From: Spirochaetia bacterium
GTDB taxonomy: Bacteria > Spirochaetota > Spirochaetia > UBA9216
DNA length: 64,000 nucleotides
Direction of reading: 5' to 3'
Assembly (NCBI GenBank): GCA_963677925.2
Contig: CAXXYH010000004.1
Span: forward strand, 1,088,001 to 1,152,000
Shown here: piece after piece, positions 47,511-64,000 of the stretch
How positions within the stretch are numbered: the first letter of the stretch is position 1
How the letters are laid out: each line of letters opens with the position of its first letter
Notes under the pieces: generated by a model
What the model was told of the DNA's origin: nothing
Databases searched by the model: none
Seen by the model: the letters and a program-made list of their open reading frames with translations, nothing else
Position numbers and translations under genes: made by a program

Positions 47511-47577
47511 CGCAGAAGTAACACAGCAGCCCGCCCCCCGCGTTGACAATATATGAAAATACGAATACCCTCATATC

Positions 47578-48159
47578 ATGAATCTTCCAACTAAAATAAC
47601 CGTTTTCAGAATCATATTAGCGCCGGTATTTATCATTATCTACATGCTCCCCGAACAGACCGGCAGTTTCATGGGATTATCGGTTGCAATTATGCTTCCG
47701 CTGTTTGTCCTCATGGAGATATCCGATGCTCTGGACGGACACATCGCCAGAAAATACAACATGGTTACAGATCTCGGCAAGATCCTCGACCCGTTTTCGG
47801 ACGTAATAAGCCGGGTAACCTTCTTTATATGCTTTACCTTTACCGGAATCATGCCCCTCTGGGCCTTTGTAATTATCATCTACCGTGAGCTCGGAATCAC
47901 ATTCCTTCGTATGATGATGATGGGCAAGGGAACTGCAATGGCGGCAAGCATCTGGGGCAAGGCCAAGGCAATCACCTATACAATAGCCGGTATAGCAGGA
48001 CTTCTTGTTACATCGTTCAACAGGCTTGAATACTATCCCGACTGGATGCCTCTGTTCGGAACTGTAACCTATATACTTTTTGCGCTGGCAGCTATCTCCT
48101 CAGCTCTTTCTTTTCTTACCTATTTTGCAAGTGCCCGGAAAGTCCTGAAGGGCAGCTGA
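47578..48159 (+). CDS. pgsA: CDP-diacylglycerol--glycerol-3-phosphate 3-phosphatidyltransferase
   Basis: DALDGHIARKYNMVTDLGKILDPFSD CDP-alcohol phosphotransferase motif. Confidence 0.9.
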   Translation: MNLPTKITVFRIILAPVFIIIYMLPEQTGSFMGLSVAIMLPLFVLMEISDALDGHIARKYNMVTDLGKILDPFSDVISRVTFFICFTFTGIMPLWAFVIIIYRELGITFLRMMMMGKGTAMAASIWGKAKAITYTIAGIAGLLVTSFNRLEYYPDWMPLFGTVTYILFALAAISSALSFLTYFASARKVLKGS

Positions 48160-48276
48160 AGCACAAGGGCTGAACAGCTGCAGAGCAGCAGCCGTCCAGT
48201 CCGGAACACTGAACCCGCAGCCCTGCATCGCTGCGGGGAGCTGGGTACAAATCCCTGCACAAGGAAATGCATCAAA

Positions 48277-49065
48277 GTGAAAAATGTAAAAGAGTTTCTT
48301 TCAGACTGCCCTCAAAAGATAAAGTATGTACTTACCGATATCGATGATACCCTGACAGAGGAAGGAAAACTTGGCGCAGATGCATATTCAGCCCTGTGGA
48401 GGCTGCATGATGCGGGCTTTACAGTGATCCCTGTAACCGGACGTCCGGCAGGCTGGTGCGATATGATAATCCGCCAGTGGCCTGTTGATGCAGTAATAGG
48501 TGAGAACGGCGCCTTTGTCTACTATTTTGAAGACCATCAGCTTAAGACCTACACACACCCCTCAGTTGCTGATACCGATGTGAGAAAGAAGCTTGATGAT
48601 GTATACGATGCAGTAAAGACTGAAATTCCCCTGGTCCGGAAGGCAAAAGATCAGTTTGCAAGAATCTATGATCTTGCAATTGATTTCAACGAGGATCCTC
48701 CGCGGCTCGGCTATGAAGCGGCCGGACGGATTAAGGATATATGTGAGGCCCAGGGCGCGATAGCCAAGGTCAGCTCGATTCATGTAAACACCTGGTTCGG
48801 TGATTATTCAAAGATAGGAATGGCAGAGCTCTTTATGAAATACCGCTACGGCCTTGATTCTGATGCTTTTAAACAATCCTCCGTCTTCTGCGGTGACTCT
48901 CCCAACGATGAGCCTATGTTCAACTTCCTGCCTTACTCCTTCGCCGTAGCCAATATCCGCGACTTTGATGATATGCTCGTCCACCGTCCTGCCTACATCG
49001 CAGACTCAAGAGGAGGAAGCGGCTTTGTAGAAATTTCTGATGTGCTTATAAACAGCATCAGCTGA
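48277..49065 (+). CDS. HAD-IIB family hydrolase
   Basis: DIDDT, TGRP, GDSPND. Confidence 0.9.
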   Translation: MKNVKEFLSDCPQKIKYVLTDIDDTLTEEGKLGADAYSALWRLHDAGFTVIPVTGRPAGWCDMIIRQWPVDAVIGENGAFVYYFEDHQLKTYTHPSVADTDVRKKLDDVYDAVKTEIPLVRKAKDQFARIYDLAIDFNEDPPRLGYEAAGRIKDICEAQGAIAKVSSIHVNTWFGDYSKIGMAELFMKYRYGLDSDAFKQSSVFCGDSPNDEPMFNFLPYSFAVANIRDFDDMLVHRPAYIADSRGGSGFVEISDVLINSIS

Positions 49066-49067
49066 CT

Positions 49068-50000
49068 GTGACGGGAGGATATGAAGTGGATGAGATAATC
49101 AGATGGCTTCTTGAAGGCGATGCCTCGATCGCGTATCAGACCTGCCGTGACCTTCTTGATACAGACAGACCTGAACTTCAGATAAAAGCCGCTGGCGAGG
49201 GGTGGGGTAAAATTCTTCTTGATGCACAGCGTCCCGACGGTCACTGGGGCCTGAAGTTCTATCAGCCCAAATGGACATCTACCCACTATACGCTGCTGGA
49301 TTTACGCAACCTGTGCATTCCTGCTGAAACTCCAGCAGTGCAGGAAACTGTTGAAATGCTTCTGGAGCAGGAGAAGGGTGTGGATGGAGGAATAAATCCG
49401 CCCGGATCTGTAAAACAGAGTGACGTCTGTTTAAACGGAATGTTTCTGAATTATGCCTGCTATTTTAATGCTGATCCTGAAAAGCTTGTATCAGTAATTG
49501 ATTATATGCTTGATCAGAGACTTCCAGACGGCGGATATAACTGTCAGTTTAACCGCAAAGGTGCTGTTCACAGCTCACTGCATTCCAGTCTTTCCGTAGC
49601 CGAAGGCTTCACCGAATACCTGAAAAACGGCTACTCCTACCGAGCCGATGAAATCAAAAGCTCTCTCGGCGGGATTCGTGATTTTATCTTTCGGCACAGA
49701 CTGTTCCGTTCAGATCGAACCGGTGAAATAATTAAGAAAGATTTCCTCCGTTTTCCGTATCCGCCGAGATGGCGTTATGACATTCTGCGGGCAATGGATT
49801 ATTTCAGGTATTCGGAAACGCTTTACGCCCCGGCTATGGATGAAGCAATAGCTATAATCAAAAGCAAGCAAAAACCTCCCGGTCACTGGAACGCCCAGGC
49901 CTCCCTGCCGGGGCAGGTTCACATTCATTTTGAACAGGCTGGCACCCCCGGCAGGTGGAATACGCTGCGGGCTCTTCGTCTACTTAAATTTTATTGCTGA
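49068..50000 (+). CDS. prenyltransferase/squalene-cyclase-fold hypothetical protein
   Basis: QRPDGHW and QRLPDGGYNC repeats; WRYDILRA; RWNTLRAL. Confidence 0.7.
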   Translation: MTGGYEVDEIIRWLLEGDASIAYQTCRDLLDTDRPELQIKAAGEGWGKILLDAQRPDGHWGLKFYQPKWTSTHYTLLDLRNLCIPAETPAVQETVEMLLEQEKGVDGGINPPGSVKQSDVCLNGMFLNYACYFNADPEKLVSVIDYMLDQRLPDGGYNCQFNRKGAVHSSLHSSLSVAEGFTEYLKNGYSYRADEIKSSLGGIRDFIFRHRLFRSDRTGEIIKKDFLRFPYPPRWRYDILRAMDYFRYSETLYAPAMDEAIAIIKSKQKPPGHWNAQASLPGQVHIHFEQAGTPGRWNTLRALRLLKFYC

Positions 50001-50042
50001 TTCGTCACAGGTCTGCTAATATAAAATAAAACGGATAAAGTA

Positions 50043-51116
50043 TTGGCAGTTGAAATCGTTTATGAAGAAAATAATAAAATTGGTATAATTTTCCCTTTTG
50101 ATGCCCAGATTCTGGATATTGTACGCACAATACCCGGAAGACAATGGCAGCCCGCAAATAAAAAATGGACATTTCCGGATACTGATGCAAATATGCAGCA
50201 TTTTCTCTTATCATTATATAAAACCGGCAGGTTTAATGTGGATGAGAAGGCTCTCGAAAATCAGGAACCGTCTCATAGCCGCTATTTGGAAAAAATGCTT
50301 CAGTATCTAAAGCTTAGAGACTATAGTCCTCATACTATTGAAACGTATAAGATGCAGCTCAAGTGGTTCTTTGATAGAACAGAACTTTCTCCTTCAGAAG
50401 TCACGACCGAGGATATCAAATTATATCTGGAGAAAATGCGGACACTGGCGGGGTGTTCAAGAACATACTTTGTACAATGTGTGAGCGCCCTGAAAAGCTT
50501 CTATAAGTATGGTTATCCCGGCGGTCTGTTTAATCCTGCAGCATCGATTCCCATGCCGAAAAAAGAAAAGAAGTATCCGGATATTCTATCCAGGGAAGAA
50601 GTGAAGAAGATAATAACATCTCCGTCGAATATTAAGCACCGATTGCTATTATCATTAATATACTCTGCAGGTCTCCGAGTAAGCGAAGCCGTTATAATAC
50701 AGTTGCAGGATATTGATACCGATAGGAAAGTAATTCATATCAGGCAGGCAAAAGGACGAAAAGATAGATATGTAATGCTTTCAACTGAGATTATTAATAT
50801 GATTAATCAATACAGATCCAAAGTGATGGTGCATACATGGCTTTTTCCTGGCAGTGCAGGTGCGGATACCCATCTTGCTACAAGATCTGCACAGAATGCC
50901 TTTTATAAAGCTATAGAAGCAACAGGTATCGAAAAAAATGTAAGTATACATTCTTTAAGACATGCCTTTGCCACTCATCTGTTGGAAAACGGTACAGACC
51001 TGAGATATATTCAGGAGCTCTTAGGTCACCGTGATCCAAAAACAACACAGATTTATACACATGTAAGTACTAAAGACCTAAAAAATATAAATAGTCCACT
51101 GGACGGGTTATTATGA
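50043..51116 (+). CDS. tyrosine recombinase associated with the cassette array (HARP-like + SAM-like + catalytic domains)
   Basis: GLRVSE, AKGRKDR, HSLRH, LGH, IYTH catalytic residues intact; LRDYSPHTIETY SAM-like domain; directly upstream of the first cassette. Confidence 0.93.
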   Translation: MAVEIVYEENNKIGIIFPFDAQILDIVRTIPGRQWQPANKKWTFPDTDANMQHFLLSLYKTGRFNVDEKALENQEPSHSRYLEKMLQYLKLRDYSPHTIETYKMQLKWFFDRTELSPSEVTTEDIKLYLEKMRTLAGCSRTYFVQCVSALKSFYKYGYPGGLFNPAASIPMPKKEKKYPDILSREEVKKIITSPSNIKHRLLLSLIYSAGLRVSEAVIIQLQDIDTDRKVIHIRQAKGRKDRYVMLSTEIINMINQYRSKVMVHTWLFPGSAGADTHLATRSAQNAFYKAIEATGIEKNVSIHSLRHAFATHLLENGTDLRYIQELLGHRDPKTTQIYTHVSTKDLKNINSPLDGLL

Positions 51117-51190
51117 ATAACAGGTTTATAAGGATTTAAGCTGGAGGGTTATATGAATGATATACCAGTTTATAATTCTGAGTTTATATG
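51117..51190 (+). other. candidate primary integration (attI-equivalent) site
   Basis: between the recombinase stop and the cassette 1 start (TTATATGC at 51184); TATAA-TTCTGAGT-TTATA core and a GGGTTATATGA box complementary to TCATATAACCC of the long attC-like sites. Confidence 0.45.
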
Positions 51191-51265
51191 CAATGGACCC
51201 GACAAGAGGAAGACGCCCGGACCTCCGGCCGACGGGCGAAGAGACATAAAGGTGGGGGATTTTTT

Positions 51266-52735
51266 ATGCAAGATTTATATATAAAATATAATAAGAAAGA
51301 TAATAAAATTGATTTTGGGCAAACAAAAGGCTCAATAATCGAGATTACTATAAAGCCACCTTCAATCGTTAAAGAAACAAAAGAAACAGGCATAACGAGA
51401 ATATCTGCTATTCAAGAAGATTTTGATAATCTAATTTCGGGAAAGAAGATGATTGACGTTAATAAAACGACTCTCGAACATTGTTATATCTTGGATAAAA
51501 AGGATCCTTACCGATTAGCGGCGACAAATTTTATTTTAAAAAATGAAAAGGATATTGAAGAATATAGTGAAATTCCAAAAGAAAATGATGCTGGTATATA
51601 TAAAAACTATGTAAAAGCATTTTTAGAAGAATTTACAAGATGTACGAAACACATTCCGTTTGCTGAAAAAATTAAAGTCTATCCTTTACCATTGTTGACT
51701 CCATGTAATGTGGAAGTATTAGTAGGTAAAGATGGTGTGTGCTTTATTTTCTCATCAGAAAGTAGACCTGAAAAAGTAAGTGTTTCCTTAGATATAAATA
51801 AAATAATAGAGGAACTTCTTCTGCCTCATCCTACTAATAGAAGATATTCATCATATGGACCTAATACTATTTTTAATTTTATCTGCTCAGATGAGAATTT
51901 TATACATGTGGTAGGGGATGGGAATGCGTTTTTAGATTCTATGCTAGGGAATCCAGTATTTTTGATTTTTGAAAAATCGTTTCATGGTTATTATTCCAAT
52001 ATGAATTTTATAAGAAATTATCCTGATACGGGACTTCAAGTTAAAAAGAAAGTTGAATATTGTGAAATATTTGGTAATAACCATATCTCTAACTTTTCAC
52101 TTGAAAACGCAAGGAGTAGAGCTAGGATAGTTGCGTATAAATCAATTTTGAGTAGTGTTACAGGAAATGTTAATAAAGTAGAAGAACTTAAAAATGTCTT
52201 GATAGAATTGAAAAACAAAATAAACAATGATGTCGGTGAAATAGAAATTGAGAAATTTATTGATTCAAATAAATGGATTTTAGAGAAAGGGATAGGGTGT
52301 CAAAAATATTTTTCACAAATTTCGATACCGAAAGATTTATTATATGATGCTGATGGTGGAATTAAACCTGATAAATATATGATGAATAATGACGGATATT
52401 GTGATATTTTAGATTTAAAAAAACCATCAGCCAAACTAATTGTAATAAAGAATAACCGCAGTCATCAATCTAGTTCTTTAACCGAAGCGGAGGCACAAAT
52501 TGATAAATATATTGATTTCTCTCGTGAACCAAAGGTTAGAGATTATTTATTAACGCTTAATATAAAAATTACGAAACCTGATGGAATTGTATTGATTGGG
52601 AGAACCCCGAAGGAATATTTAAAAGAATGGATTGATATAAAAAAGAGATTACAAATAAAAGTATATACTTATGATGATTTAGTTAATAATTTGGATAATT
52701 TAATTGATTGGATAGATAAGATTCTTACAATTTGA
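51266..52735 (+). CDS. cassette 1: Shedu-like (DUF4263) anti-phage nuclease with long N-terminal region
   Basis: C-terminal E.EIEKFI..N.WIL, KPD, ILDLKKP, LTEAEAQIDKY, P.GIVLIGR, VYTYDDL; start moved to 51266. Confidence 0.75.
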   Translation: MQDLYIKYNKKDNKIDFGQTKGSIIEITIKPPSIVKETKETGITRISAIQEDFDNLISGKKMIDVNKTTLEHCYILDKKDPYRLAATNFILKNEKDIEEYSEIPKENDAGIYKNYVKAFLEEFTRCTKHIPFAEKIKVYPLPLLTPCNVEVLVGKDGVCFIFSSESRPEKVSVSLDINKIIEELLLPHPTNRRYSSYGPNTIFNFICSDENFIHVVGDGNAFLDSMLGNPVFLIFEKSFHGYYSNMNFIRNYPDTGLQVKKKVEYCEIFGNNHISNFSLENARSRARIVAYKSILSSVTGNVNKVEELKNVLIELKNKINNDVGEIEIEKFIDSNKWILEKGIGCQKYFSQISIPKDLLYDADGGIKPDKYMMNNDGYCDILDLKKPSAKLIVIKNNRSHQSSSLTEAEAQIDKYIDFSREPKVRDYLLTLNIKITKPDGIVLIGRTPKEYLKEWIDIKKRLQIKVYTYDDLVNNLDNLIDWIDKILTI

Positions 52736-52788
52736 ATTAAGAATCCAGACCTAACTCCGTTGAACGGTCTGGATGTCGGGTCCAAAGC

Positions 52789-52882
52789 ATAAAACAGGGG
52801 CTATGTGTATCGTCGCTATGCGCTCCTCGGGCTGCGCCACATACGGCTACGCCGTACGTCACATAACACCGGGACGTTATGA
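52789..52882 (+). repeat. attC-like site 1 (short, 94 bp)
   Basis: ATAAAAC-AGGGGCTATGTG...CACATAAC-ACCGGGAC-GTTATGA. Confidence 0.85.
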
Positions 52883-52993
52883 GCAATAAGCCCGACAAGT
52901 AAAAGACGCCCGGACCTCCGGCCGACGGGCAAAGAGAGACAGTGTGATAAAATATTATACTAAAAAAGTAAATATAGAATTAAGGGTTTTCAT

Positions 52994-53587
52994 ATGAAAA
53001 AAATAATATGTGTTCTAATCCTTTACATATTATCTATTTTTAGTTGTGTTACAACAGAAACTGTAAATATCAAGAAAGATAGTATGGAAAAGAGTGATTC
53101 TGTCTCTAAAGAAGAATTCAAAATTAGCATAAAAGAATTTGATGATATTTCAAAATATAAAAAGCTTATAAATTTATATGCATTTAAATATAGTGATGAG
53201 AGCAATACAGAATTTCGAGTTTTTACAGGTAGATGTTCAGCTTTTGTCAGGGACAATGGATATTCATCAATATTGCTGAACAATTCTGATGAGAGAGAAA
53301 TAATAAATAGTTATGAAGGTGATTATGAAAAAATTGCTATTATAAATGTCCATACAGTTGATTTAGATAAAGAAAATGGGAAAATTATAATAATCATGTT
53401 TGGAATAAATGATGATGATAAAGAAAAAATATTGTATGTACCTTTTTGGATTGCTACAGCAGAAGGTAAAAGTGTTGAGATTTTGAAATTAAAAAGTAGA
53501 GAAGAAGTTGGAAAATACATGATAGATTGTTTTTTTAATAATATGGAAATTTCTAATGAGTTGATTTATACATTAAGTGGAAATTAG
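52994..53587 (+). CDS. cassette 2: hypothetical lipoprotein
   Basis: MKK...IFSC lipobox; AT-rich. Confidence 0.75.
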   Translation: MKKIICVLILYILSIFSCVTTETVNIKKDSMEKSDSVSKEEFKISIKEFDDISKYKKLINLYAFKYSDESNTEFRVFTGRCSAFVRDNGYSSILLNNSDEREIINSYEGDYEKIAIINVHTVDLDKENGKIIIIMFGINDDDKEKILYVPFWIATAEGKSVEILKLKSREEVGKYMIDCFFNNMEISNELIYTLSGN

Positions 53588-53660
53588 ATTATTCATAACA
53601 ATGAAGGATAAAGAATCCAGCCCTAACTCCGTTGGACGGTCTGGATGTCGGGCTTAAAGC

Positions 53661-53755
53661 TCATAACAGGGGCTATGTGCTTCGTCGCTATACGCTCCTC
53701 GGGCTGCGCCACATACGGCATTCGCCGTACGTCACATAACCCCGGGACGTTATAG
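53661..53755 (+). repeat. attC-like site 2 (short, 95 bp)
   Basis: TCATAAC-AGGGGCTATGTG...CACATAAC-CCCGGGAC-GTTATAG. Confidence 0.9.
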
Positions 53756-53848
53756 CGCAATGAGCCTGACAAGATGAAAATCGCCCGGACCTCCGGCCGA
53801 CGGGCGAAGATATATATATGCTAAGTATCCAAAAAAGGTGATATGTAA

Positions 53849-54385
53849 ATGAATTATCAAACAGTCTATGATATTTCTAAATCTTCTTATAATTGGGTAT
53901 TCCCCTTTTTAGGAATACTTATAACCATTTTATTAATAATTTTTACTAAAGTGGTAAGAAGAAACTTGAAAGTTTTAAATAGGATAGAGGCAGAAAAAGA
54001 AAAAAAGGAAATTTTCTATAATTTTAATAATCCATATGTGAGTAATATGTTGAGACGATTACCCATGGTTTTCACGATATTGGCTTCTATAGCGACCGTT
54101 TTTATAACTTATGGATCTATAAATTATTATGTGAAATTAAATGAAGTGATTCAAAATCAAGAGTATTCAGTTGTTGAAGATAAAATAAAAATTATTAATA
54201 AGTTTGAAACAAATAGAATTCAAAATTTCAAAGTTGGAAAATTTATTTTTAATGTTGCGGATATAAACTCCATCAGAATCTCATTTTGGAAATCTGGAAC
54301 ATATGAAGATTTTTTAGTTGAAGGTCAAGATGTTAAAGTTTATTTTTATGGAAAGTATATTTTGCGTGTTGATTTAATGAAATGA
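53849..54385 (+). CDS. cassette 3: two-TM hypothetical protein
   Basis: AGGTG RBS; two hydrophobic helices plus a soluble C-terminal domain. Confidence 0.75.
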   Translation: MNYQTVYDISKSSYNWVFPFLGILITILLIIFTKVVRRNLKVLNRIEAEKEKKEIFYNFNNPYVSNMLRRLPMVFTILASIATVFITYGSINYYVKLNEVIQNQEYSVVEDKIKIINKFETNRIQNFKVGKFIFNVADINSIRISFWKSGTYEDFLVEGQDVKVYFYGKYILRVDLMK

Positions 54386-54520
54386 ATATGCATGCAAAAT
54401 TTCTATTCATATAGTTACTATTAAAGAGTAATTACTAAGAAATTTGAGTATTATTTTAGCATATAAGAGTGGGAATCCAGACCTAACTCCGTTGAACGGT
54501 CTGGATGTCAGGCTCAAAGC

Positions 54521-54843
54521 GCATAACAGGGGCTATATGCTCGTCGCTAAACGCTCCTTGGGCTTCGCCACATTTTTATTTTCTGAATTGGGTAATTGGG
54601 TACAGCATTTAACAAGAGATTTGGAGTAGTCAAAACCTTTGTCACAGTTCTGGCTAAAGACACTCCGCGCTGATCGCGCTACGTTCCAGAACTGCGCCAA
54701 GCCTCGGAGACTCGGCCGGTTTCGCTACTCAAATCGTCGTTAAATGCACAGAAATGTGCCAATAGTTTATGATTGAGAAATACGGGTAAGTGGTGGTAAA
54801 ATTAAGAAAAATAAAAACGTCATATAACCCCGGGGCGTTATGA
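54521..54843 (+). repeat. attC-like site 3 (long, 323 bp)
   Basis: same ends as the short sites, with an approximately 240-bp structured arm replacing the ACGGC..GCCGT hairpin. Confidence 0.85.
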
Positions 54844-54960
54844 GCAATGAGCCCAACAAGAGGAAGACGCCCGGACCTCCGGCCGACGGGCGAAGAATCG
54901 ATTGGTTTGATTTTTATAACTGATAAGTGATGTCAAAAGTAATATAAAGAATAGGTTGGT

Positions 54961-55680
54961 ATGGATATACAAGAGGATAAAGTAAATAATAATTTGATTG
55001 CGCAAGATTTAGAATTAGGAGTAATAACTATGGGGGCAGCAACGATTGATCAAAGACATAATTTTGCATACCAACATATGCACTCAGCTATTGAATTTAG
55101 GAATCAAACTTATAAAATTGAAGAAGATAATAAAAACGAAAAATTTGGATATTTTTTTGAGTTGATTAGAACATATGTAAGTGGTTGTATATTCTTTTCA
55201 GTGGCTTCAGTAGAGGCAAATATAAATGAAATTATATGTGATATTATTGAAAATAAAATAAAATTAGGTGAGTTTGAAAAAAAGAAAATTATTGAAATAA
55301 ATGATAGAGAGTCTACTCTTAAAAAATACGAAATCATATTAAACGAGGTAATGAAGTTTGAATTATCAAAAGATAAAGAAATTTATCAAAATATGAAAAT
55401 TTTAATAGATGTAAGAAATGCTTTTACTCATTTCAAACCAGAATGGGAATCAAATCAGAAATGGCATGATAAAATTGGAAGAAAATTATCTGGGAAAATC
55501 AAGATGACTCCATACATAGAAGATAGCAGTCCGATTTTTCCGATGCGTTGCATGACTTATGATTTTTGTTGTTGGTCCACAATATCAAGTTATAATTTTA
55601 TGAAAGAAATTTTTAGTTTACTATCAATAAGAAATAAATTTGAGAAATTTGAAGAAACAATTTATAAGGGTAGTAATTAA
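54961..55680 (+). CDS. cassette 4: HEPN-like protein
   Basis: ASVEANINE helix and RNAFTH (R-X4-H) motif. Confidence 0.6.
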   Translation: MDIQEDKVNNNLIAQDLELGVITMGAATIDQRHNFAYQHMHSAIEFRNQTYKIEEDNKNEKFGYFFELIRTYVSGCIFFSVASVEANINEIICDIIENKIKLGEFEKKKIIEINDRESTLKKYEIILNEVMKFELSKDKEIYQNMKILIDVRNAFTHFKPEWESNQKWHDKIGRKLSGKIKMTPYIEDSSPIFPMRCMTYDFCCWSTISSYNFMKEIFSLLSIRNKFEKFEETIYKGSN

Positions 55681-55761
55681 TATAATTATATAGCTTATTT
55701 TTATAGTGTAAGGGAATCCAGACCTATCTCCGTCGAACGGTCTGGATGTTGGGCTCAAAGC

Positions 55762-56085
55762 GCATAACAGGGGCTATATGCATCGTCGCTAAATGCTCCT
55801 CGGGCTGCGCCACATTTTTATTTTGTAATTGGGTTAATAGGGTATAGCATTTAACAAAAGATTTGGAGTAGTCACAACCTTTGTCACAGTTCTGGCTAAA
55901 GACACTCCGCGCTGATCGCGCTGCGTTCCAGAACTGCGCCAAGCCTCGGTGACTCGGCCGGTTTCGCTACTCAAATCGTCGTTAAATGCACAGACATGTG
56001 CCAATAGTTTATGATTGTGAAATACGGGTAAGTGGTGGTAAAATTAAGAAAAATAAAAACGTCATATAACCCCGGGACGTTAGCT
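55762..56085 (+). repeat. attC-like site 4 (long, 324 bp)
   Basis: near-identical to site 3. Confidence 0.85.
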
Positions 56086-56213
56086 GCAATTTCGGTCATG
56101 GTAATTATCTAATTAGTAGGAGCCCGCCTTCCATGGCGGTCAGGATAGAAGAAGTAAATATCTACATTTTGATACATTTTTTAAATAAACAATCTAAATA
56201 ATAAGGAATTTTA

Positions 56214-56933
56214 ATGAAAAAAAAGAGAATTATATCAATACTTCTATGTCTTTTTTCAACATCGGTCTATGCAGAAACAAATGATGTTCCAAATGGAATG
56301 ATCATAGAATCATCTTCTAATAATGGACAATCAATTCTTGTAAGAAAACATGACCAAGTTTTGACGATTGATTACTCTGCGCACGATTTTCAAATGGTTA
56401 TTTATGATTCTCCAATAAATAAAGAAAAAATTGGGGAATTGAAAAAGAAGGATGTAATACGAATAAAAGAAATACATATTATTGATGATAACGAAATGTG
56501 GTTTAAAATTTCTGCTTCTGAGAAAAATGGTTATATCTTATTTAAAATTGGTGAAAATATTTATGATTTCTACGCTGATAATTTATGGCAACCAGTAGAA
56601 ACTATTCAGAGTGGGGAGCAAACTTGGCATACATTAAAATGTAATCAGAGTTTTATTGTTTATACTAATTTGTTTATTCGTGATAAACCTGGATTTGGTG
56701 GGGAAAAAATAGGAATGATAACTGCAAATAATAGCAATTCCGAAATAGTAAGCACTTCAGAAGTTACTGTTGAAAAAGAGAAGATTGATGGAAAAACTGA
56801 ACGCTGGGCTAAAATTGAATATTAAGGACTAATTGGTTGGGTATTTGCAGGTTATTTGAGTTATGAAAGAGGTGGGCCTAGGTTTAATACTCCCGAATCA
56901 ATGATAGCAATGAGTCTTGGCGCAGGTATTTAA
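56214..56933 (+). pseudogene. cassette 5: secreted SH3-domain protein with an in-frame stop at 56823-56825
   Basis: signal peptide; NLFIRDKPG...WAKIEY*GLIGWVFAGYL is an SH3b-like motif split by TAA; the frame continues to 56933. Confidence 0.7.
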
Positions 56934-57040
56934 ATTTTTAGATATTATTATAATTCGTGGAAATTTAAATTGTTTTACAGAGTCAAATACATCCTTGTAT
57001 TTGACAGAATTAATCACTTGACAACCATGACGGAAACAGC

Positions 57041-57367
57041 AGCTAACAGGGGTTATTTGCTTCGTCGCTATGTGCTCCTCGGGCTTCGCAACATTTTTAT
57101 TTTTGTAAATGGACGATATGACAAAAGGCATTTAACAATGATTTGCAGCAGTCCTGGCTATTTTCACGGTTTTAGCTAAAGACGTTCCGCGCTGATCGCG
57201 CTGCACTCTAAAACCGAGCCAATGCCGTAGGAGACTACGGCCGCCAGGCAGCTGAAATCGGCGTTAAATGCACAGACATGTGCCAATAGTTTATGATTGA
57301 GAAATACGGGTAAGTGGTGGTAAAATTAAGAAAAATAAAAACGTCATATAACCCCGGGACGTTATAC
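57041..57367 (+). repeat. attC-like site 5 (long, 327 bp, divergent arm)
   Basis: AGCTAAC-AGGGGTTAT...CATATAAC-CCCGGGAC-GTTATAC. Confidence 0.85.
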
Positions 57368-57399
57368 GACATATCACATATCTAAAATGGAGTAAAAAA

Positions 57400-57807
57400 G
57401 TGAGTGAAAGACCGTTTAAAGAAAAATCGAATGAACCTACAAACGAAAAAATAAATGAAGCACTCGGTGCTGTTTCCGAATATTATCATGATTTAAATAA
57501 ATTGACAAAAGATTTTCAACACACCTGGAATCATTCAAAATCCAGTGGCTGGATGGAAAAAGTAGAAGATAATAAAAAAGCTCTTTACTATTTTATTCCG
57601 TTGAATGATTCCTTTATTCTGAGTATGGCTATTAGAGAAAATGAAAAAGAATATTTTGAGTCTAAAGAGGGTATGGTAAAATATAAAGATATAGTATCAA
57701 CCGCCAGAAAATATTCGGAAGGATATAATATAAAATTTGAGGTAGAAAACTCTGAGCAATACGATTTTTCAAAAGAGTTTGTAAAAGAAATAATTGCTCA
57801 AAGGTAG
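57400..57807 (+). CDS. cassette 6: DUF3788-like hypothetical protein
   Basis: P..E.I.EALG...W...K.SGW..K....KK.L.Y..P....F, ARKYSEG pattern; GGAG RBS with GTG start. Confidence 0.6.
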   Translation: MSERPFKEKSNEPTNEKINEALGAVSEYYHDLNKLTKDFQHTWNHSKSSGWMEKVEDNKKALYYFIPLNDSFILSMAIRENEKEYFESKEGMVKYKDIVSTARKYSEGYNIKFEVENSEQYDFSKEFVKEIIAQR

Positions 57808-57821
57808 ATATGTGAAACGTC

Positions 57822-57915
57822 GTATAACAGGGGCTATGTGCTTCGTCGCTATACGCTCCTCGGGCTGCGCCACATACGGCTTCGCCGTACGTCACATAAC
57901 CCCGGAACGTTATCT
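57822..57915 (+). repeat. attC-like site 6 (short, 94 bp)
   Basis: GTATAAC...GTTATCT; body nearly identical to site 2. Confidence 0.9.
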
Positions 57916-57977
57916 GACATACCCAGAAAAGTTCCGACCCTCACCATCCGTGGTTCGGGTTTTAAGAAGAAGAGAAA

Positions 57978-58724
57978 ATGAATATTGAATGTATTATTAA
58001 AGAAGCTGGAAGAAAGTTAAAGAACGAATATTTGGAAACGCCTCTTGTCTCAGTTAAAGAAAGATATGATTTAGTAAGTCAAAGTGATAAGAGGATTGAA
58101 GAGGAATTAATAAAAGAGATTATAAAGTTGTTTCCAAATGATGATATTTATTCAGAAGAAATTGGAGAAATTAAGAATGAAGGAAGATCAAGATGGATTA
58201 TAGATCCAATTGATGGAACCGCTGATTTTATTTTTGGAGTCCCGTACTTTGCAATATCAATCGCAAAAGAAGTAGATGGGATAATTGAAGAAGGTTATGT
58301 ATATAATCCAATATCGGAAGAGTTTTATAAATCAATTAAAAATGAAAGAAAATCCTACCTCAATGATGTAGAAATAAAAGTTTCAGAAAAAAATGTAATT
58401 GAAGAATCTTTAATTGCTTTCGGATTTAGTGCCAATGAAGAGAATATGAATTTATATCTTTCTGAATGGTCTAATCTCATGAATGATTGTAGAAAGGCAA
58501 TGCCATTAATCACTCCTGCATTAACAATTTGTAATGTCGCAAGAGGAAGGATCGACGCTTACATAGATTTTGGTTCAAGTATGGAAGGAAAAGCTGCTGC
58601 CAGTATGATATTGCTGAATGCAGGAGGAAGTATTCGGAATTATTATAGAGAGGGTTTTGATCATAGAGAAAAAGGACATATATGTAGCAATGGAAGATTG
58701 GATCTTGAAGAAGGAAGAGGTTAG
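57978..58724 (+). CDS. cassette 7: inositol monophosphatase family protein
   Basis: DLVSQSD, SEE, WIIDPIDGT, VARGRIDAY. Confidence 0.88.
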   Translation: MNIECIIKEAGRKLKNEYLETPLVSVKERYDLVSQSDKRIEEELIKEIIKLFPNDDIYSEEIGEIKNEGRSRWIIDPIDGTADFIFGVPYFAISIAKEVDGIIEEGYVYNPISEEFYKSIKNERKSYLNDVEIKVSEKNVIEESLIAFGFSANEENMNLYLSEWSNLMNDCRKAMPLITPALTICNVARGRIDAYIDFGSSMEGKAAASMILLNAGGSIRNYYREGFDHREKGHICSNGRLDLEEGRG

Positions 58725-58783
58725 GAAGAAAAATAAGTACATCCCTGTACTTATTTTAGAGGTATAATAAAAATGGGTACGTC

Positions 58784-58875
58784 AGATAACAAGGGTTACA
58801 CGCTCCGGCCATACGGCCTGCGGGCTGAGCCACATTCGGCTACACCGAACGTCGTGTAACCCTGGAACGTTATCT
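58784..58875 (+). repeat. attC-like site 7 (short, 92 bp, divergent)
   Basis: AGATAAC-AAGGGTTACACG...CGTGTAAC-CCTGGAAC-GTTATCT; compensatory stem changes relative to the other sites. Confidence 0.85.
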
Positions 58876-58990
58876 GCAATGTTTCCGCCAAGAGGAAGAT
58901 GCCCGGACCTCCGGCCGACGGGCGAAGAAGAATGAGGTTTGAATATACTAATTAGTGAGATAAGATAAAATAAAAAAATGAGGTAGCATT

Positions 58991-59560
58991 ATGAAAGTGT
59001 TTATTTTAACTGTTTTAGGAGTAGTCTCAACAAGAATTTTGGATTTATTCACTACATATAAAATTACTCCGGATTTAGAGAAAGAAAGTAATTTATTTGT
59101 AAAGTTGCTTGGGGAAACTGGAGGTTGGGCAGCGATTTGGATATTTCAAGCAATTGTAGTAATTTTACTTCTCTATTTAGAATATTTAAGAATAAAAAGT
59201 CCAACCGTCGAATATGTAGAAGATGAGGGTTTGAAATTTAAAGAATATTTTTCATTAAATTATTCGAGTAAGAAAGATGATTTAATAAAATCAGTAATGA
59301 ATTTACCATTAAAGAAGAGGTTGATGATCGATCTATTAGGATATATTGGTACAAGAACTTTACTATTTGGAACAATTCCTGTCTGTTTATCAAGTCTGTT
59401 TGCGATTTTAAACTCTTCTTATCGAAGTTTCTATGTAGATAATAGTTTATGGAGAATACTGTATTTAATAATGGCAGTAGTATTAGTGAGTTTTTATATA
59501 AGATTTTTTTGGATAAGATTTAAGGATTATGAGAAGAAAGATATTTTAAAGAAAATGTAA
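58991..59560 (+). CDS. cassette 8: hypothetical membrane protein
   Basis: four TM segments; DLFTT....PDL.KESN motif. Confidence 0.75.
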   Translation: MKVFILTVLGVVSTRILDLFTTYKITPDLEKESNLFVKLLGETGGWAAIWIFQAIVVILLLYLEYLRIKSPTVEYVEDEGLKFKEYFSLNYSSKKDDLIKSVMNLPLKKRLMIDLLGYIGTRTLLFGTIPVCLSSLFAILNSSYRSFYVDNSLWRILYLIMAVVLVSFYIRFFWIRFKDYEKKDILKKM

Positions 59561-59637
59561 GAAAGAGAGAAAGAGAGAAAGAGAGAAACCAGCCCTGGCT
59601 CCGCCGTACGGTCTGGCTGAAGAGGCGGAAACACAGC

Positions 59638-59816
59638 AGATAACAGCGGCTATGTGCGGCGTCGCTAAACGCTCCTTGGCCTACGGCATATTTTGTTTTG
59701 GCATCGCTTTTGCGAAGAGGTAGAAAAATATAGGGTAAAGGCGTCGAATGCAAAAGTGCTGCCAATCGGCCTGTAGGGCCGACCACAAAACATCACATAA
59801 CCGCGGGACGTTATAG
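59638..59816 (+). repeat. attC-like site 8 (intermediate, 179 bp)
   Basis: AGATAAC-AGCGGCTATGTG...CACATAAC-CGCGGGAC-GTTATAG with a different inserted arm. Confidence 0.85.
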
Positions 59817-59930
59817 GAAATATTTTGGCTAAGAGAAAGACGCCCGGACCTCCGGCCGACGGGCAATAAGGAAAAAAAGAATAAATTTTAAAATTGATAT
59901 ATTATGTCAATATATAAGAAATGAAACGTA

Positions 59931-61057
59931 TTGAAAAGGATTCTATTATTTTTATTATTATTAGGAATAACCTCATGTAAAAACTTTTTTCCATATTATC
60001 AAAATGGATACCATTTCAATCAAATATTTTCTAAAGATACAAAACTTATTTTAGATGAAAAAGCAGATTCATTCTCTGCGTTTATATCTGAGACTTCTAA
60101 AGTTTTAGTATATTATAGTACTGATGGGATGGTGCACTTGATAGATTTGGAAGGATTGATTGAAGTTTCCACCATCCCTTGGGTTGATAATTCAAATTAT
60201 TATAATGATATTGTTCCTGATTTTAAACAATTGTATATTTATGAAAATTATTTGTATCTTCTAGGGTCAACAGATTGTCTGGTATATTTGATTGAGGATA
60301 TATCAAATCCATCTTTTAAATATTCTATTAGTGAAAATAATACCTATAATTTAAACACTACCTATTATTTAAGTTTAAGATGTATGGATAATAAAATATA
60401 TATTTTAGATTCTAATTCATTTTCATACTATAAACTATTATTAATTTTGGATGCAGATAATATGCTAGAAATTGAAAGACATTATTTAGATTCTTTTGAA
60501 GGAGTAATTGATAAAGAAATTTACTTAAATTCAAATTATTTATACACTTTTTCAAGTGAGCTTAAAATTGATAAAGATGGTAATCCTTTTACAATAACAA
60601 ATCAAATGATTGTTTATGATATTACTGATATTTCTAATAATTATGAATTGGTCGATATAAATTCTATCAGTTTAGAGGACAATGGATTTAATATATATAA
60701 TGATATTATAGTAAGTGATGGAGCAATAGGTTTAAATTCAGAAGAGTATTTTTGGAGCATAATAAAATTAGATAGTGAAAAAAATATGAATTTCTACAAA
60801 AATGTAATTCAACAGATGAAATAAACTTGTTTAGTTATTTTGATTTAGATTTTGATTTTAATAATATTTTAATCGGGAATTATTTTGTTTATGATATAAG
60901 AGAGTTAAATAGTCCAAGATGGATTGGGACTATTGATGAGGATTTGAAAGACATCGAAGTTGTAAGAAAACTTCAAACTGGAGATAACTTATTTTTATTT
61001 GAAAAAGGTAGTGATAGTGAGAATGAAATAGCTTTAGTGAAGTATGCTTTTAATTGA
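59931..61057 (+). pseudogene. cassette 9: LVIVD-like beta-propeller lipoprotein, frameshifted near 60800
   Basis: lipobox ITSC; IEDISNP, VYDITDISN, VYDIRELNSP repeats; the two ORFs join if one A is added to the A5 run at 60798-60802. Confidence 0.65.
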
Positions 61058-61156
61058 TAAAGTTTGTTTTGGGATACTGTTAAAGTTGAAAGTTGTATGT
61101 TTAAGAGTCCAGCCCTATCTCCGATGTACGGTCTGGCTCAAGAGCCAAAATACTTC

Positions 61157-61479
61157 CTATAACAGGGGCTATATGCTCAGCCCATTCGGGCTTCGGGCTG
61201 CGCCACATTTTTATTTTATGGATTGGGCTATTTGGGTATAGCATTTAACAAAAGTTTTGGAGCAGTCCTGGCTATTGTCATGATTCTGGCAGAGACGTTC
61301 CGCGCTGATCGCGCTGCACTCCAGAATCACGCCAATGCGCGCGAAGACACGCGCCGCCATGCAGCTCAAAACGTCGTTAAATGCACAGACATGCGCCAAT
61401 AGTTTGTGATTGGTAAATACGGGTAAGTGGTGGTAAAATTAAAAAAATAAAAACGTCATATAACCCCGGGACGTTATGC
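61157..61479 (+). repeat. attC-like site 9 (long, 323 bp)
   Basis: CTATAAC-AGGGGCTATATG...CATATAAC-CCCGGGAC-GTTATGC. Confidence 0.85.
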
Positions 61480-61950
61480 GGACATCGCCGGAGCATGGTT
61501 ATGGGGTGGAGAAAGTTCCGAACAAGAAGTGATTACCAAATAGTTTGCAATATTCAATTCGCCCTAGATTGAGGAAGATTTTTGATTTTGATTTGGATGT
61601 TGTTGGAAGAAGGTCGTTAAAATTGACGAAGCTTGTTCTGGCGTGAAAGAAAAAGTATTGTCTTAAAATTATCAAAATCTTTTTTGAAGATGGAGCAGGT
61701 TTTACCATTTTGCAAGTCTGATTCACTCGCATAGCTCGTTGACTTGCGACTTAATAAAAATGATTGTTTTACTTGCAAAGGGCGAATAGAATATTGAGAA
61801 GAAATAGAAAGAGAAGATTGTATAGATTATTTGATTGATCGGAATCTTTCTCTAATAAAGGCGACGTCGCATAACAGGGCACATGCGGCTACGGGGTCAA
61901 GCCCCTTCGCCCAAATTGGCCTGCGGCCAACTTCGCATATGCCCGGGACG
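61474..61950 (+). other. cassette 10: ORF-less structured cassette (includes attC-like site 10, 61869-61956)
   Basis: no credible ORF; nested long-range complementary segments; paralog of cassette 11. Confidence 0.75.
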
Positions 61951-62426
61951 TTATGCGGACATCGCCGTAGCATGATCTTGGGGTGGAGAAAGTTCCGAAC
62001 CAGAAGTGATTACCAAATAGTTTGCAATATTCAATTCGCCCTGGATTGAGGGAGATTTTGGATTTTGATTTTGTGGTTGTCAGAAGAAAGCCGTTGCATC
62101 TGACGAAGTTTATTCTGACGTGGAAAAAAGTATTGTTTTATAATTATCAAAATCTGCTTCGTGGACTTGGCAGGGTTTTCCGTTTGGCAAGTCTGCCTCA
62201 CTCGCTTTGCTCGTTGACTTGCAGGTGAAATAAAAATGATTGTGAAAGTCGCAAAGGGCGAATAGAATATTGGGTAGAAATGGTAAGAGGAGATTTGTTA
62301 GGTCATTTGATTGATCGGAATCTTTCTCTAATAAAGGCGACGTCGCATAACAGGGCACATGCGGCTACGGGGGCAAGCCCCTTCGCCCAAATTGGCCTGC
62401 GGCCAACTTCGCATATGCCCGGGACG
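61951..62426 (+). other. cassette 11: ORF-less structured cassette (includes attC-like site 11, 62345-62432)
   Basis: diverged tandem copy of cassette 10 that keeps the paired segments. Confidence 0.75.
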
Positions 62427-62535
62427 TTATAGGAAATGCCCATCAAAATCTTTGAAAGATCCTCGCCATCCATGGCTCGGTTTAGAAGAATAGAAAGAAG
62501 TTGACAATCCACTACAATGTAATTACAGTATAAAT

Positions 62536-62820
62536 ATGGAACATATCCAGTTTGAATGGGATAATAAGAAAGATGAGCTAAATCAGAAGAAGCATAAGAT
62601 AGGTTTTGACGAGGCAAAAACTGTATTTTATGATCCATCTGCATTGTTGATTCATGATCCAGATCATTCTGAAGATGAAGAAAGATTCATAATTATGGGG
62701 ATGAGTCAAAGCTTGAAGATCTTAGTTGTTTGTCATTGTTATAGATCTAATGATGAAGTTATACGAATAATATCTGCTAGAAAAGCAGAGAAAGAAGAGA
62801 TTAGGCAATATGGAGGATGA
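62536..62820 (+). CDS. brnT: cassette 12: BrnT-family toxin
   Basis: FEWDNKK...N..KH.I.F..A..VF.D...EERF...G...IRIISARKA; candidate own promoter TTGACA at 62501. Confidence 0.9.
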   Translation: MEHIQFEWDNKKDELNQKKHKIGFDEAKTVFYDPSALLIHDPDHSEDEERFIIMGMSQSLKILVVCHCYRSNDEVIRIISARKAEKEEIRQYGG

Positions 62821-63040
62821 AGATATGAGAGATTCATATGATTTTTCGAATGCAAGAAAGAATCCTTACATTACAAAATTAAAGAAGCAAATCACAATCA
62901 GATTGGATGAAGAAACCATAGATTATTTTAAAGAGATGTCAGAAGAATCAGGGATAAAATATCAGCAATTAATAAATCTTTATCTGGCTGATTGTGCAAA
63001 GAAAAATCTAAAATTAAATATAAATTGGAAAGCCTCTTAA
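62810..63040 (+). CDS. brnA: cassette 12: BrnA-like (RHH) antitoxin
   Basis: YDFSNARKNPY...KKQITIRLD...IDYFK...GIKYQQLIN. Confidence 0.85.
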   Translation: MEDEDMRDSYDFSNARKNPYITKLKKQITIRLDEETIDYFKEMSEESGIKYQQLINLYLADCAKKNLKLNINWKAS

Positions 63041-63093
63041 AGCCCAAAGTACGTCCTGTACTTTGGGTAAATAATAAAAGTGATGGGCACTTC

Positions 63094-63188
63094 CTATAAC
63101 AGGGGCTATGTGCTTCGTCGCTATGCGCTCCTCGGGCTGCGCCACATACGGCTTACGCCGTACGTCACATAACCCCTGGACGTTAGCT
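63094..63188 (+). repeat. attC-like site 12 (short, 95 bp)
   Basis: CTATAAC...CACATAAC-CCCTGGAC-GTTAGCT. Confidence 0.9.
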
Positions 63189-63313
63189 GAAATGCCCCCG
63201 CGAAGAGAAAGACGCCCGGACCTCCGGCCGGCGGGCGATAAGGAAATTATAATATGCATAATTGATTTACAAGTCTAAATATAGTACTATATAAGCACTA
63301 ATAGGAGTTTATT

Positions 63314-63598
63314 ATGAATTTAAGAGAAGATATTAAGCCGATTTCATATATTAAAACAAACGCAGCAGACATGTTAAAACGTGTTAATGATACTCACAAC
63401 CCGATTGTAATAACCCAGAATGGTGAAGCAAAAGCAGTTTTGATGGATACTGAATCATATCAAGAAATGAGGAATAGTCTTGGAATTTTAAAATTGCTTG
63501 CAGAAGGTGAACGTGATATCGAAAAGGGAGATATCTATACACAAGATGAAGTTTTTGAAGAAATTGAAGCAAAACTGTTAAATATGAAGAAGAAATAA
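63314..63598 (+). CDS. cassette 13: Phd/YefM-family antitoxin
   Basis: IKPISYIK...PIVITQNGEAKAVLMD. Confidence 0.9.
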   Translation: MNLREDIKPISYIKTNAADMLKRVNDTHNPIVITQNGEAKAVLMDTESYQEMRNSLGILKLLAEGERDIEKGDIYTQDEVFEEIEAKLLNMKKK

Positions 63599-63602
63599 TG
63601 AT

Positions 63603-63917
63603 ATGGAAGTTATTTGGACTAAAACAGCAAAAAATGATTTAAATGAGATAGTTGAATATATAGCAAATGACTCTGTAGAAATAGCATTAAATAAATTTTA
63701 TGAAATTAGAGAAAGTACTAAACCCTTAGAGAAATTTCCTGAACAAGGAAGACTGATTCCAGAATTAAGAAATGAAAACATCTTGCGATATAGGGAAATT
63801 ATAATAAACCCATGGCGGATAATGTATAAAATAGAAGATAAGAAAGTTTATATTATAGCAGTCATAGATGGAAGAAGAAATGTTGAAGATGTTTTAATGA
63901 AAAGGCAACTTCGTTAA
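63603..63917 (+). CDS. cassette 13: RelE/ParE-family toxin
   Basis: WTKTAKNDL.EI.EYIA...FPEQGR..PEL...YRE....WRIMY...IAVIDGRR. Confidence 0.9.
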   Translation: MEVIWTKTAKNDLNEIVEYIANDSVEIALNKFYEIRESTKPLEKFPEQGRLIPELRNENILRYREIIINPWRIMYKIEDKKVYIIAVIDGRRNVEDVLMKRQLR

Positions 63918-63982
63918 AGAAACATTAAAAGAATCCAGACCTAACTCCGTCGAACGGTCTGGATGAAGAGCGGGGGCACTAC

Positions 63983-64000
63983 AGCTAACAGGGGCTATGT
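63983..64000 (+). repeat. attC-like site 13 (5' part, cut by the window end)
   Basis: AGCTAAC-AGGGGCTATGT. Confidence 0.8.

Follow-up and report, generated by a model that had tools for sequence, protein, structure and literature searches.

The 64,000-nucleotide (nt) stretch of DNA analyzed here (hereafter the window) comes from a Spirochaetia bacterium, where it is part of contig C4 of a 5.04 Mb genome (G000), and contains the gene for a tyrosine recombinase, P0001, with an array of short cassettes downstream of it that has the same orientation (Table 1). Thirteen cassettes (c1 to c13) lie in the window, and the array continues for approximately 8 kb past the window end. The separators of the cassettes are imperfect palindromes, denoted R1 sites here, that start with ...ATAAC-A and end with ...GRAC-GTTA; the limits of a cassette were set at the G of GTT at the 5' end and at the C of AAC at the 3' end. 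The cargo includes a Shedu protein with the SduA_C domain, BrnT/BrnA, Phd/ParE and an inositol-monophosphatase-like protein. The present analysis concerns primarily the ends of these cassettes, which pair with each other within each cassette and represent the split outer stem of the R1 hairpin.

Complementarity between the two ends of the same cassette is found in all 13 cassettes. When the 5' arm is aligned to the reverse complement of the 3' arm of its own cassette, 15-22 matches over 17-24 nt are obtained, with a 1-nt indel required in four alignments (c1, c3, c10 and c11). The 156 combinations of arms from different cassettes score 5.25 on average and 12 at most, with the high values in this set coming from the duplicate cassettes c10 and c11 and from the related cassettes c2-c4. 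Arms that are physically adjacent in the array, where they form a chimeric site, score 3-11. Permutation of the 3' arms among the 13 cassettes did not produce a sum equal to or greater than the observed value of 171 in any of 100,000 trials. The same scan applied to 40 random 23.5-kb stretches from the rest of the genome (940 kb) detected nine matches with a score of at least 11 and none with a score of at least 13.5, compared with 17 matches, 14 of them at or above 13.5, in the 23.5-kb array. The first-pass annotation of this DNA had proposed that every cassette possesses its own covarying terminal inverted repeat and that the ends match within a cassette but not between neighbors; both statements hold for this array, and the end sequences given there for c1, c2, c5-c9, c12 and c13 agree with the DNA. 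It follows that the pairing should form only after the two ends of one cassette are joined.

Arm pairs were pooled from this array, a second array of G000 and eight related arrays (10 arrays in nine genomes altogether), yielding 77 pairs with a score of at least 13.5, of which 64 are distinct and 55 of these ungapped. The stem length across the 64 distinct pairs has a median of 21 nt and a range of 16-30 nt, compared with the R-box pairing of about 7 bp in integrons. Position 11, counted from the G, is a Watson-Crick pair in none of the 55 distinct ungapped pairs: the 5' arm invariably has A (55 of 55), opposed by C in 46 pairs and by A in nine, which corresponds to A.C or A.A on the top strand and, on the bottom strand, to a T.G wobble or, rarely, T.T. 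At position 12, T-A is found in 48 of the 55 pairs and the bases are paired in 98%, and at positions 6-9 and 13-21 all four bases are used, with pairing in 89-100% of cases. An A-C or A-A mismatch near position 11 followed by T-A had already been noticed in the first pass, and the rule turns out to be stricter than was thought. Related arms differ by paired changes (for example, ...CCCGACA, ...CCTGACA, ...CCCAACA and ...GGGCTCAACA), each with a matching partner. The arms of c10 (61473-61875) and c11 (61950-62351), which are two copies of a 402-nt cassette without an open reading frame (ORF), are found again in many cassettes of the array in the related genome G039.

The 11 short R1 sites can be aligned with 21 consensus pairs, seven of which show compensatory changes. 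The bottom-strand fold consists, in this order, of the R box, a G.T pair beside AAC, a 4-nt bulge and an 11-bp L box. The L box is an uninterrupted helix that lacks extrahelical bases, so that the only unpaired bases are those of the 4-nt bulge between the boxes. The AAC and GTT triplets and the folding into R and L boxes are shared with integrons. The copies of the MazEF cassette in the C4 array and in an array on contig C3 of the same genome are identical from GTTAGACG through the next site core until GTTAT, at which point the two arrays diverge; likewise, downstream of the recombinase, the window is identical to G039, a genome of the same genus, until ctgaG|TT, and different first cassettes follow. 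Comparison of the arrays at these junctions shows that the R1 crossover lies at G|TT and that arrayed sites are chimeric, as they are in integrons. Given that this crossover is located deep in the stem, the arms are the part of the stem that lies outside the crossover and is split by integration, and the cassette ends are shown to be the halves of this split outer stem in an attC-like hairpin site. From the crossover outward, this stem comprises the R box of approximately 10 bp, the non-Watson-Crick position 11, the T-A pair at position 12 and, beyond it, a G+C-rich helix of approximately 5-15 bp with a sequence private to each cassette. Position 11, at the outer boundary of an 11-bp arm, would be about one turn of the helix away from the point of cleavage.

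The consensus of the 5' arm, TTATnnnnAAT, recalls the 11-bp Xer arm of dif, and the recombinase scores as Xer-like (see below), both of which would be expected if R1 were a double-stranded site of the Xer type, with arms that are alike through fitting one protein-binding consensus. However, the bases at positions 6-9 and 13-21 vary from one cassette to another and yet are complementary within each cassette, which rules out a shared consensus as the source of the pairing, and 7 of the 21 pairs of the site carry compensatory changes in the L box. We therefore regard double-stranded Xer-type sites as a very improbable explanation of the arms.

Folding was assessed with nearest-neighbor energies predicted with DNA parameters for naked DNA. 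These predictions favor the bottom strand over the top strand in each of the 17 sites, with a mean difference of 6.6 kcal/mol, and the site formed at the circle junction is more stable than the same site in the array context in 16 of 17 cases, by a mean of 11.7 kcal/mol; the single site without such a gain adjoins a duplicate cassette. In the chimeric sites, 5-9 of the 12 inner pairs are retained but the outer pairs are mostly reduced to 0-5 out of 10, and at site 6 the R box is missing from the minimum-energy fold in the array context. The presence of T.G on the bottom strand, as opposed to A.C on the top strand, together with the better predicted folding of the bottom strand, fits a single-stranded DNA form. 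In the first pass, it was suggested that the ends pair in a single-stranded intermediate, either circular DNA or RNA. The DNA version of this proposal gains from the strand bias (17/17), whereas the sense RNA version is not supported, given that A.C is not expected in an RNA helix under selection. The other suggestions made there, namely that the pairing ensures excision of one cassette at a time or reflects the way in which cassettes arise, would follow logically from such pairing.

Pairing in RNA could take the form of a sense transcript closed by a long-range stem, with a role in processing or stability, or of a folded antisense RNA. Such a role would be compatible with arrays that can be co-transcribed and with the hairpin modules that adjoin both arms. 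Nevertheless, we consider it highly unlikely because the sense strand has A.C or A.A and never G.U at the constant position, the G.T being on the complementary strand; because the limits of the paired region fall at the DNA crossover point; because cassettes without an ORF pair as well; and because an Rfam scan of positions 44000-64000 identified no family at E<=1.

The hairpin modules themselves accompany both arms in most cassettes (e.g. 51209-51240 and 52740-52772) and are of two kinds that form paired ends. In modules of type A, a 5' hairpin GCCCGG...CGGGC is combined with a 3' hairpin CCAGNCC...GGTCTGG, and AAGAR adjoins the helix; modules of type B consist of hairpins with ATCC-containing loops. 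The 5' and 3' module types co-occur within a cassette. The AAGA motif, which brackets the helix, follows the 5' arm in 21 of 64 cases and precedes the 3' arm in 16 of 64, compared with a background frequency of 6.7%, and was considered as a part of the core site; this candidate was rejected given that the motif, although enriched, is restricted to a single class of end modules.

A crossover located within a long stem would by itself leave complementary ends without any selection, so the pairing could be a historical by-product of the origin of each cassette from a long palindrome or of hairpin-templated repair, with no function at present. Several observations argue against this improbable scenario. 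The MazEF cassette has a copy in another family, in which the arms are identical (21/21 and 21/21) and so is the 35-nt 3' module (35/35), compared with 483 of 566 positions in the ORF region and 54 of 82 in the site core. Among related arms, substitutions are paired. One position remains unpaired in 55 of 55 pairs, whereas homogenizing repair would erase it. Finally, the outer helix has a G+C content of 53%, compared with 28% in the bodies of the same cassettes. Selection on the arms is thus supported by the arm conservation across families and by the G+C-rich outer helix.

The match of P0001 to the IntI model TIGR02249 amounts to 194 bits in two stretches, below the cut-off of 265, and P0001 obtains 232 bits on NF040815 ('XerA / integron integrase'; cut-off 220), a score that is Xer-like, together with 205 bits on the XerC model (cut-off 335) and 201 on the XerD model (cut-off 330). 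The IntI-specific insertion, I2, which corresponds to residues 176-240 of the Vibrio IntI4, has no counterpart in P0001. This difference is reflected in the spacing between the KGxKxR and HxLRH motifs, which is 64-66 residues in all 20 members of the P0001 family, compared with 106 in 13 of the 17 IntI proteins listed (among the other four, both motifs were not found in three and the figure was unusable in one) and 70-73 in the Xer proteins of the same genome. The C-terminal SPLD motif is common to P0001 and IntI. In a maximum-likelihood tree obtained by a quick search, with IntI_L116, oth_L004, oth_L003 and Yrec_C3 left out, the IntI clade has a support of 100 and the insertion-less spirochaete proteins form a clade with a support of 90, and the join of the two clades is weak (support 55). 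The close relatives of P0001 are named only 'tyrosine-type recombinase/integrase' or 'XerD' by their sources.

The Pfam HARP domain (PF07443) matches the first 60 or so residues in 10 of the 20 members of the P0001 family (E<=0.01), with the best E-value of 5e-7. In the AlphaFold model of P0001 (mean predicted local distance difference test score, pLDDT, 85.6; predicted template modeling score 0.53), residues 1-60 have block-mean pLDDT values of 90-95 and form a strand-strand-helix-strand-strand-helix arrangement. A sequence search with residues 1-80 against solved structures returned nothing meaningful, and a look-up of residues 1-78 in the Atlas, with a best score of 0.80, was uninformative.

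The link between R1 sites and this recombinase extends beyond the window. With a covariance model of R1, arrays were found to adjoin homologs of P0001 (35-96% protein identity) in nine of 10 loci, the tenth being the end of a 4.4-kb contig. The same model detected no sites beside the true IntI in G091, G066 and G039, and one site in the C3 array of G000. R1 matches are present in 30 of the 151 sampled genomes of the class, and 11 of the 15 genomes with at least three R1 matches have a P0001-like match. R1 arrays are shown by these counts to be associated with the I2-less recombinase. The proximity of a recombinase without the IntI insertion indicates that the array is not a canonical integron; this point, like the second site family described below, was not part of the first-pass annotation. 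We also observe, in two genomes of another genus (G009:C2:561400-571231 and G046:C1:2493288-2505757), R1-like sites that are located upstream of a P0001-like gene and are divergent from it, as in the classical integron arrangement; the P0001-like gene of that genus is shorter, matching residues 83-357, and contains one in-frame TAG. Among viral contigs, only general Xer-like relatives of the recombinase were found, along with two weak matches of the R1 model.

A true IntI is encoded on contig C3 of the same genome (L046:4200-5459). This protein of 419 amino acids obtains 382 bits on TIGR02249 (cut-off 265), is 48.6% identical to IntI1 and has an N-terminal extension of approximately 105 residues without a Pfam match; its gene is divergent from its array of 15 sites. 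These sites belong to a second family, R2, which is used by the arrays beside IntI in C3 and in two relatives. The R2 hairpin is approximately 127-160 nt long and has 51 consensus pairs, of which 17 show compensatory changes, and the R2 model detects 12 sites in G091 and 13 in G039, beside IntI. The presence of R2 in the window became apparent through a generic attC finder based on folding of every AAC...GTT pair, which was dropped as it produced many false positives and picked inner hairpins. Four R1 sites of the window have a copy of R2, together with approximately 170 nt of flanking sequence, nested in the terminal loop. The resulting composite sites of approximately 310 nt occupy positions 54528-54836, 55769-56078, 57048-57360 and 61164-61472, and their flanks, TTTTTATTTT and AAAATAAAAA, are complementary and lengthen the R1 stem. 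R2 copies, whether nested or not, also occur in three related R1 arrays. In the C3 array, two R1 cassettes form a block enclosed by a pair of R2 sites in which half R1 sites are present, and one R1 cassette in this array is identical to c14 of the C4 array. This arrangement suggests that IntI may use the nested R2 sites to move R1 cassettes as blocks.

An alternative is that the system is an ordinary integron in which the C3 IntI acts on R1 in trans, the long stem is an attC flavor particular to this lineage, and the neighboring recombinase does something else, such as acting exclusively at the attI-like site or functioning as a Xer paralog. The genome does encode an IntI that passes the TIGR02249 cut-off and is accompanied by an array with R1 cassettes, one of which is identical to c14 of the C4 array; an IntI gene is present in all five relatives tested (in two of these relatives the gene is split); and the AAC/GTT triplets and the hairpin of R and L boxes are kept in R1. 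On balance, this alternative seems unlikely, given that R1 is found beside the I2-less recombinase in nine of 10 loci and beside IntI in none of G091, G066 and G039, that R1 has a 4-nt inter-box bulge and an L box devoid of extrahelical bases, and that the R1 cassettes in C3 form a block between R2 sites, as if IntI had used the nested R2 sites.

The R2 cassettes also serve as a control for the length of end pairing. In 36 consecutive R2 cassettes, the own-end pairing has a median of 10 nt (interquartile range 9-14), and in five class 1 plasmid cassettes inspected by eye, 11, 7, 12, 9 and 10 of 12 nt are paired. In 587 kb around 80 metagenomic IntI genes, seven matches with a score of at least 13.5 were detected in four loci; these were discarded because they proved to be a palindrome that had been scored on both strands, a repeat rich in GTTCAA and a single weak case, so no convincing long pairing was found near these genes, a weak negative as the presence of arrays in each locus is unverified. 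Long, mismatch-conserving pairing is not routine outside R1 as far as tested. The first-pass annotation had set the pairing against the 7-bp R-box match, sometimes with short extensions, of classical cassettes, and had named equally long pairing in canonical integrons as the result that would speak against its significance; the R1 median of 21 nt exceeds both the 10 nt seen with the true IntI in the same genomes and the 7-12 nt of class 1 cassettes, and no such pairing was seen in the R2, class 1 or metagenomic controls. In approximately a quarter of the R2 cassettes (L135, L045, L131), pairing resumes for 3-9 nt after an extra A at position 10-12 of the 5' arm, which hints at a helix irregularity near position 11 in both site types, although the signal is weak and near chance in each case.

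Table 1. The recombinase gene, cassette arms, R1 site cores and nested R2 sites, with positions in the window
Feature	Position	Strand	Remark
Tyrosine recombinase P0001, 357 aa	50043..51116	+	HARP-like N-terminal domain (residues 1-60), IntI-like C-terminal SPLD tail
attI-like junction	51117..51182	+	window = G039 until ctgaG|TT, first cassettes then differ
c1 5' arm	51182..51204	+	end pairing
c1 3' arm	52774..52795	+	end pairing
c2 5' arm	52876..52897	+	end pairing
c2 3' arm	53646..53667	+	end pairing
c3 5' arm	53749..53771	+	end pairing
c3 3' arm	54506..54527	+	end pairing
c4 5' arm	54837..54858	+	end pairing
c4 3' arm	55747..55768	+	end pairing
c5 5' arm	56079..56102	+	end pairing
c5 3' arm	57024..57047	+	end pairing
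c6 5' arm	57361..57384	+	end pairing
c6 3' arm	57805..57828	+	end pairing
c7 5' arm	57909..57925	+	end pairing
c7 3' arm	58774..58790	+	end pairing
c8 5' arm	58869..58889	+	end pairing
c8 3' arm	59624..59644	+	end pairing
c9 5' arm	59810..59830	+	end pairing
c9 3' arm	61143..61163	+	end pairing
c10 5' arm (ORF-less cassette)	61473..61489	+	end pairing
c10 3' arm	61860..61875	+	end pairing
c11 5' arm (c10 duplicate)	61950..61966	+	end pairing
c11 3' arm	62336..62351	+	end pairing
c12 5' arm	62426..62445	+	end pairing
c12 3' arm	63081..63100	+	end pairing
c13 5' arm	63182..63201	+	end pairing
c13 3' arm	63970..63989	+	end pairing; its site core extends beyond the window
R1 site core 1	52795..52876	-	C of AAC to G of GTT
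R1 site core 2	53667..53749	-	
R1 site core 3	54527..54837	-	composite, R2 nested in loop
R1 site core 4	55768..56079	-	composite
R1 site core 5	57047..57361	-	composite
R1 site core 6	57828..57909	-	
R1 site core 7	58790..58869	-	
R1 site core 8	59644..59810	-	long loop
R1 site core 9	61163..61473	-	composite
R1 site core 10	61875..61950	-	
R1 site core 11	62351..62426	-	
R1 site core 12	63100..63182	-	
R2 site nested in core 3	54597..54755	-	IntI-type
R2 site nested in core 4	55839..55997	-	
R2 site nested in core 5	57120..57279	-	
R2 site nested in core 9	61233..61392	-	

With respect to the cargo, the slot nearest to the recombinase is occupied by c1 (ORF 51188-52735), which encodes a protein of 515 amino acids with the Shedu SduA C-terminal domain (Pfam E-value 1.9e-12) and is a candidate anti-phage defense gene.

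Taken together, these observations are best explained, in our assessment probably, by a split outer stem of the R1 hairpin that is recombined, most likely, by the adjacent I2-less recombinase. Under this explanation, the full stem would form only in an excised single cassette with its own ends joined and would steady the folded bottom strand by approximately 12 kcal/mol relative to the chimeric arrayed sites. Since the full stem would exist only in the excised cassette and would be more stable there, re-insertion of single complete cassettes would be favored, and the arrayed sites would stay poorly folded. The wobble at position 11, the second G.T pair beside AAC and the 4-nt bulge might bias both folding and recognition to the bottom strand. 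The HARP-like domain, a junction-binding fold elsewhere, may read the end of the long stem and in this way replace the reading of extrahelical bases by IntI.

Several points weigh against this explanation. The HARP match of P0001 itself, 22.3 bits, is below the Pfam cut-off of 25. Four of the 15 genomes with at least three R1 sites have no P0001-like match at E<=1e-40. The outer-helix length of 16-30 nt argues against a strict ruler. The arms of related cassettes share ancestry, so the counts given above, including those over the 55 pairs, overstate independence, and the stability differences pertain to naked DNA. A true IntI is encoded in the same genome and R1 cassettes are also present in its array, so IntI could be the R1 enzyme as well. 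The excised circle, the strand preference in vivo and the protein-DNA contact are points that we infer, and the two public runs, both of which consist of assembled contigs with joints at repeats, are uninformative on circles and excision.

A broader proposal, which we put forward more tentatively as a possibility, is that of a second cassette-capture system independent of IntI, in which an I2-less recombinase acts on near-fully-paired hairpins that are recognized both by the HARP-like domain, where the long private stem ends, and by way of the fixed T.G wobble one helical turn from the cut, and which exchanges cassettes with the integron via the nested sites. In integron theory, the I2 helix and the extrahelical bases are the innovation that enabled recombination of hairpins; an array that seemingly lacks both would put this theory to the test and, if the proposal is true, would represent another way of reading a folded DNA site. 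A cassette-private stem that forms only after clean excision of a single cassette would be a built-in identity check that bears on both the stability of the array and its mobility. Such sites might also be relevant for the design of orthogonal structure-specific recombination sites, and tools that demand the IntI insertion would overlook or misclassify arrays of this kind together with their recombinase.

Literature searches returned nothing on long pairing of cassette ends or on a fusion of HARP with a recombinase. The published 'Spirochaetes-type' attC set (PMC8352920) may already include R1-type sites, with the feature unremarked.

Among the known systems, integrons (attC with IntI) are similar to the R1 system in their unidirectional arrays beside a tyrosine recombinase, imperfect palindromes, AAC...GTT, R and L boxes, bottom-strand bias (predicted for R1) and a cargo of toxin-antitoxin and defense genes; arrayed attC sites are chimeric after crossover at G|TT, according to a passage of PMC4889954. 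R1 differs from integrons in the length of the stem outside the crossover (17-24 nt as opposed to 7-12), the constantly unpaired position 11 and the 4-nt inter-box bulge that takes the place of L-box extrahelical bases, and P0001 differs from IntI in the absence of the I2 insertion, the HARP-like N-terminal domain and the orientation, which is the same as that of the array. Of the features tested, the IntI insertion, a score above the cut-off of the IntI model and the L-box extrahelical bases are lacking in the R1 system, and the cassette-private outer helix and the fixed wobble are added over the controls. The 'reverse' integrons of Treponema, compared by description only from the relevant parts of PMC3607928 and PMC4889954, share with this array the spirochaete hosts and an integrase co-oriented with the cassettes, and differ in the IntI-type integrases and the attC sites with a protruding G that are reported for them.

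P0001 is also comparable to the 'integron-like' subgroup of simple tyrosine recombinases, in that it has the SPLD tail of IntI and, in the quick tree, is placed beside the IntI clade. Conservation of the insertion is incomplete in that subgroup, as stated in a portion of Smyshlyaev et al. 2021 (PMC8138268), and the same portion describes no sites, arrays or N-terminal domain for the insertion-less members. From Xer/dif, with its single 28-30-bp site per replicon that serves in dimer resolution, R1 differs in having tens of sites per array that separate cassettes. Finally, in the relevant passages of PMC7790495, the I2 helix is reported to dock the extrahelical bases of attC, and the CTX-phi hairpin to mimic a double-stranded dif site for Xer enzymes that lack I2. 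R1 resembles this attP(+) site, which belongs to the integrative mobile elements exploiting Xer (IMEX) and is recombined by XerCD, in its near-fully-paired hairpin, TTAT-type arms and short bulged center, but is distinguished by the many cassettes with private stems and by a dedicated neighboring recombinase.

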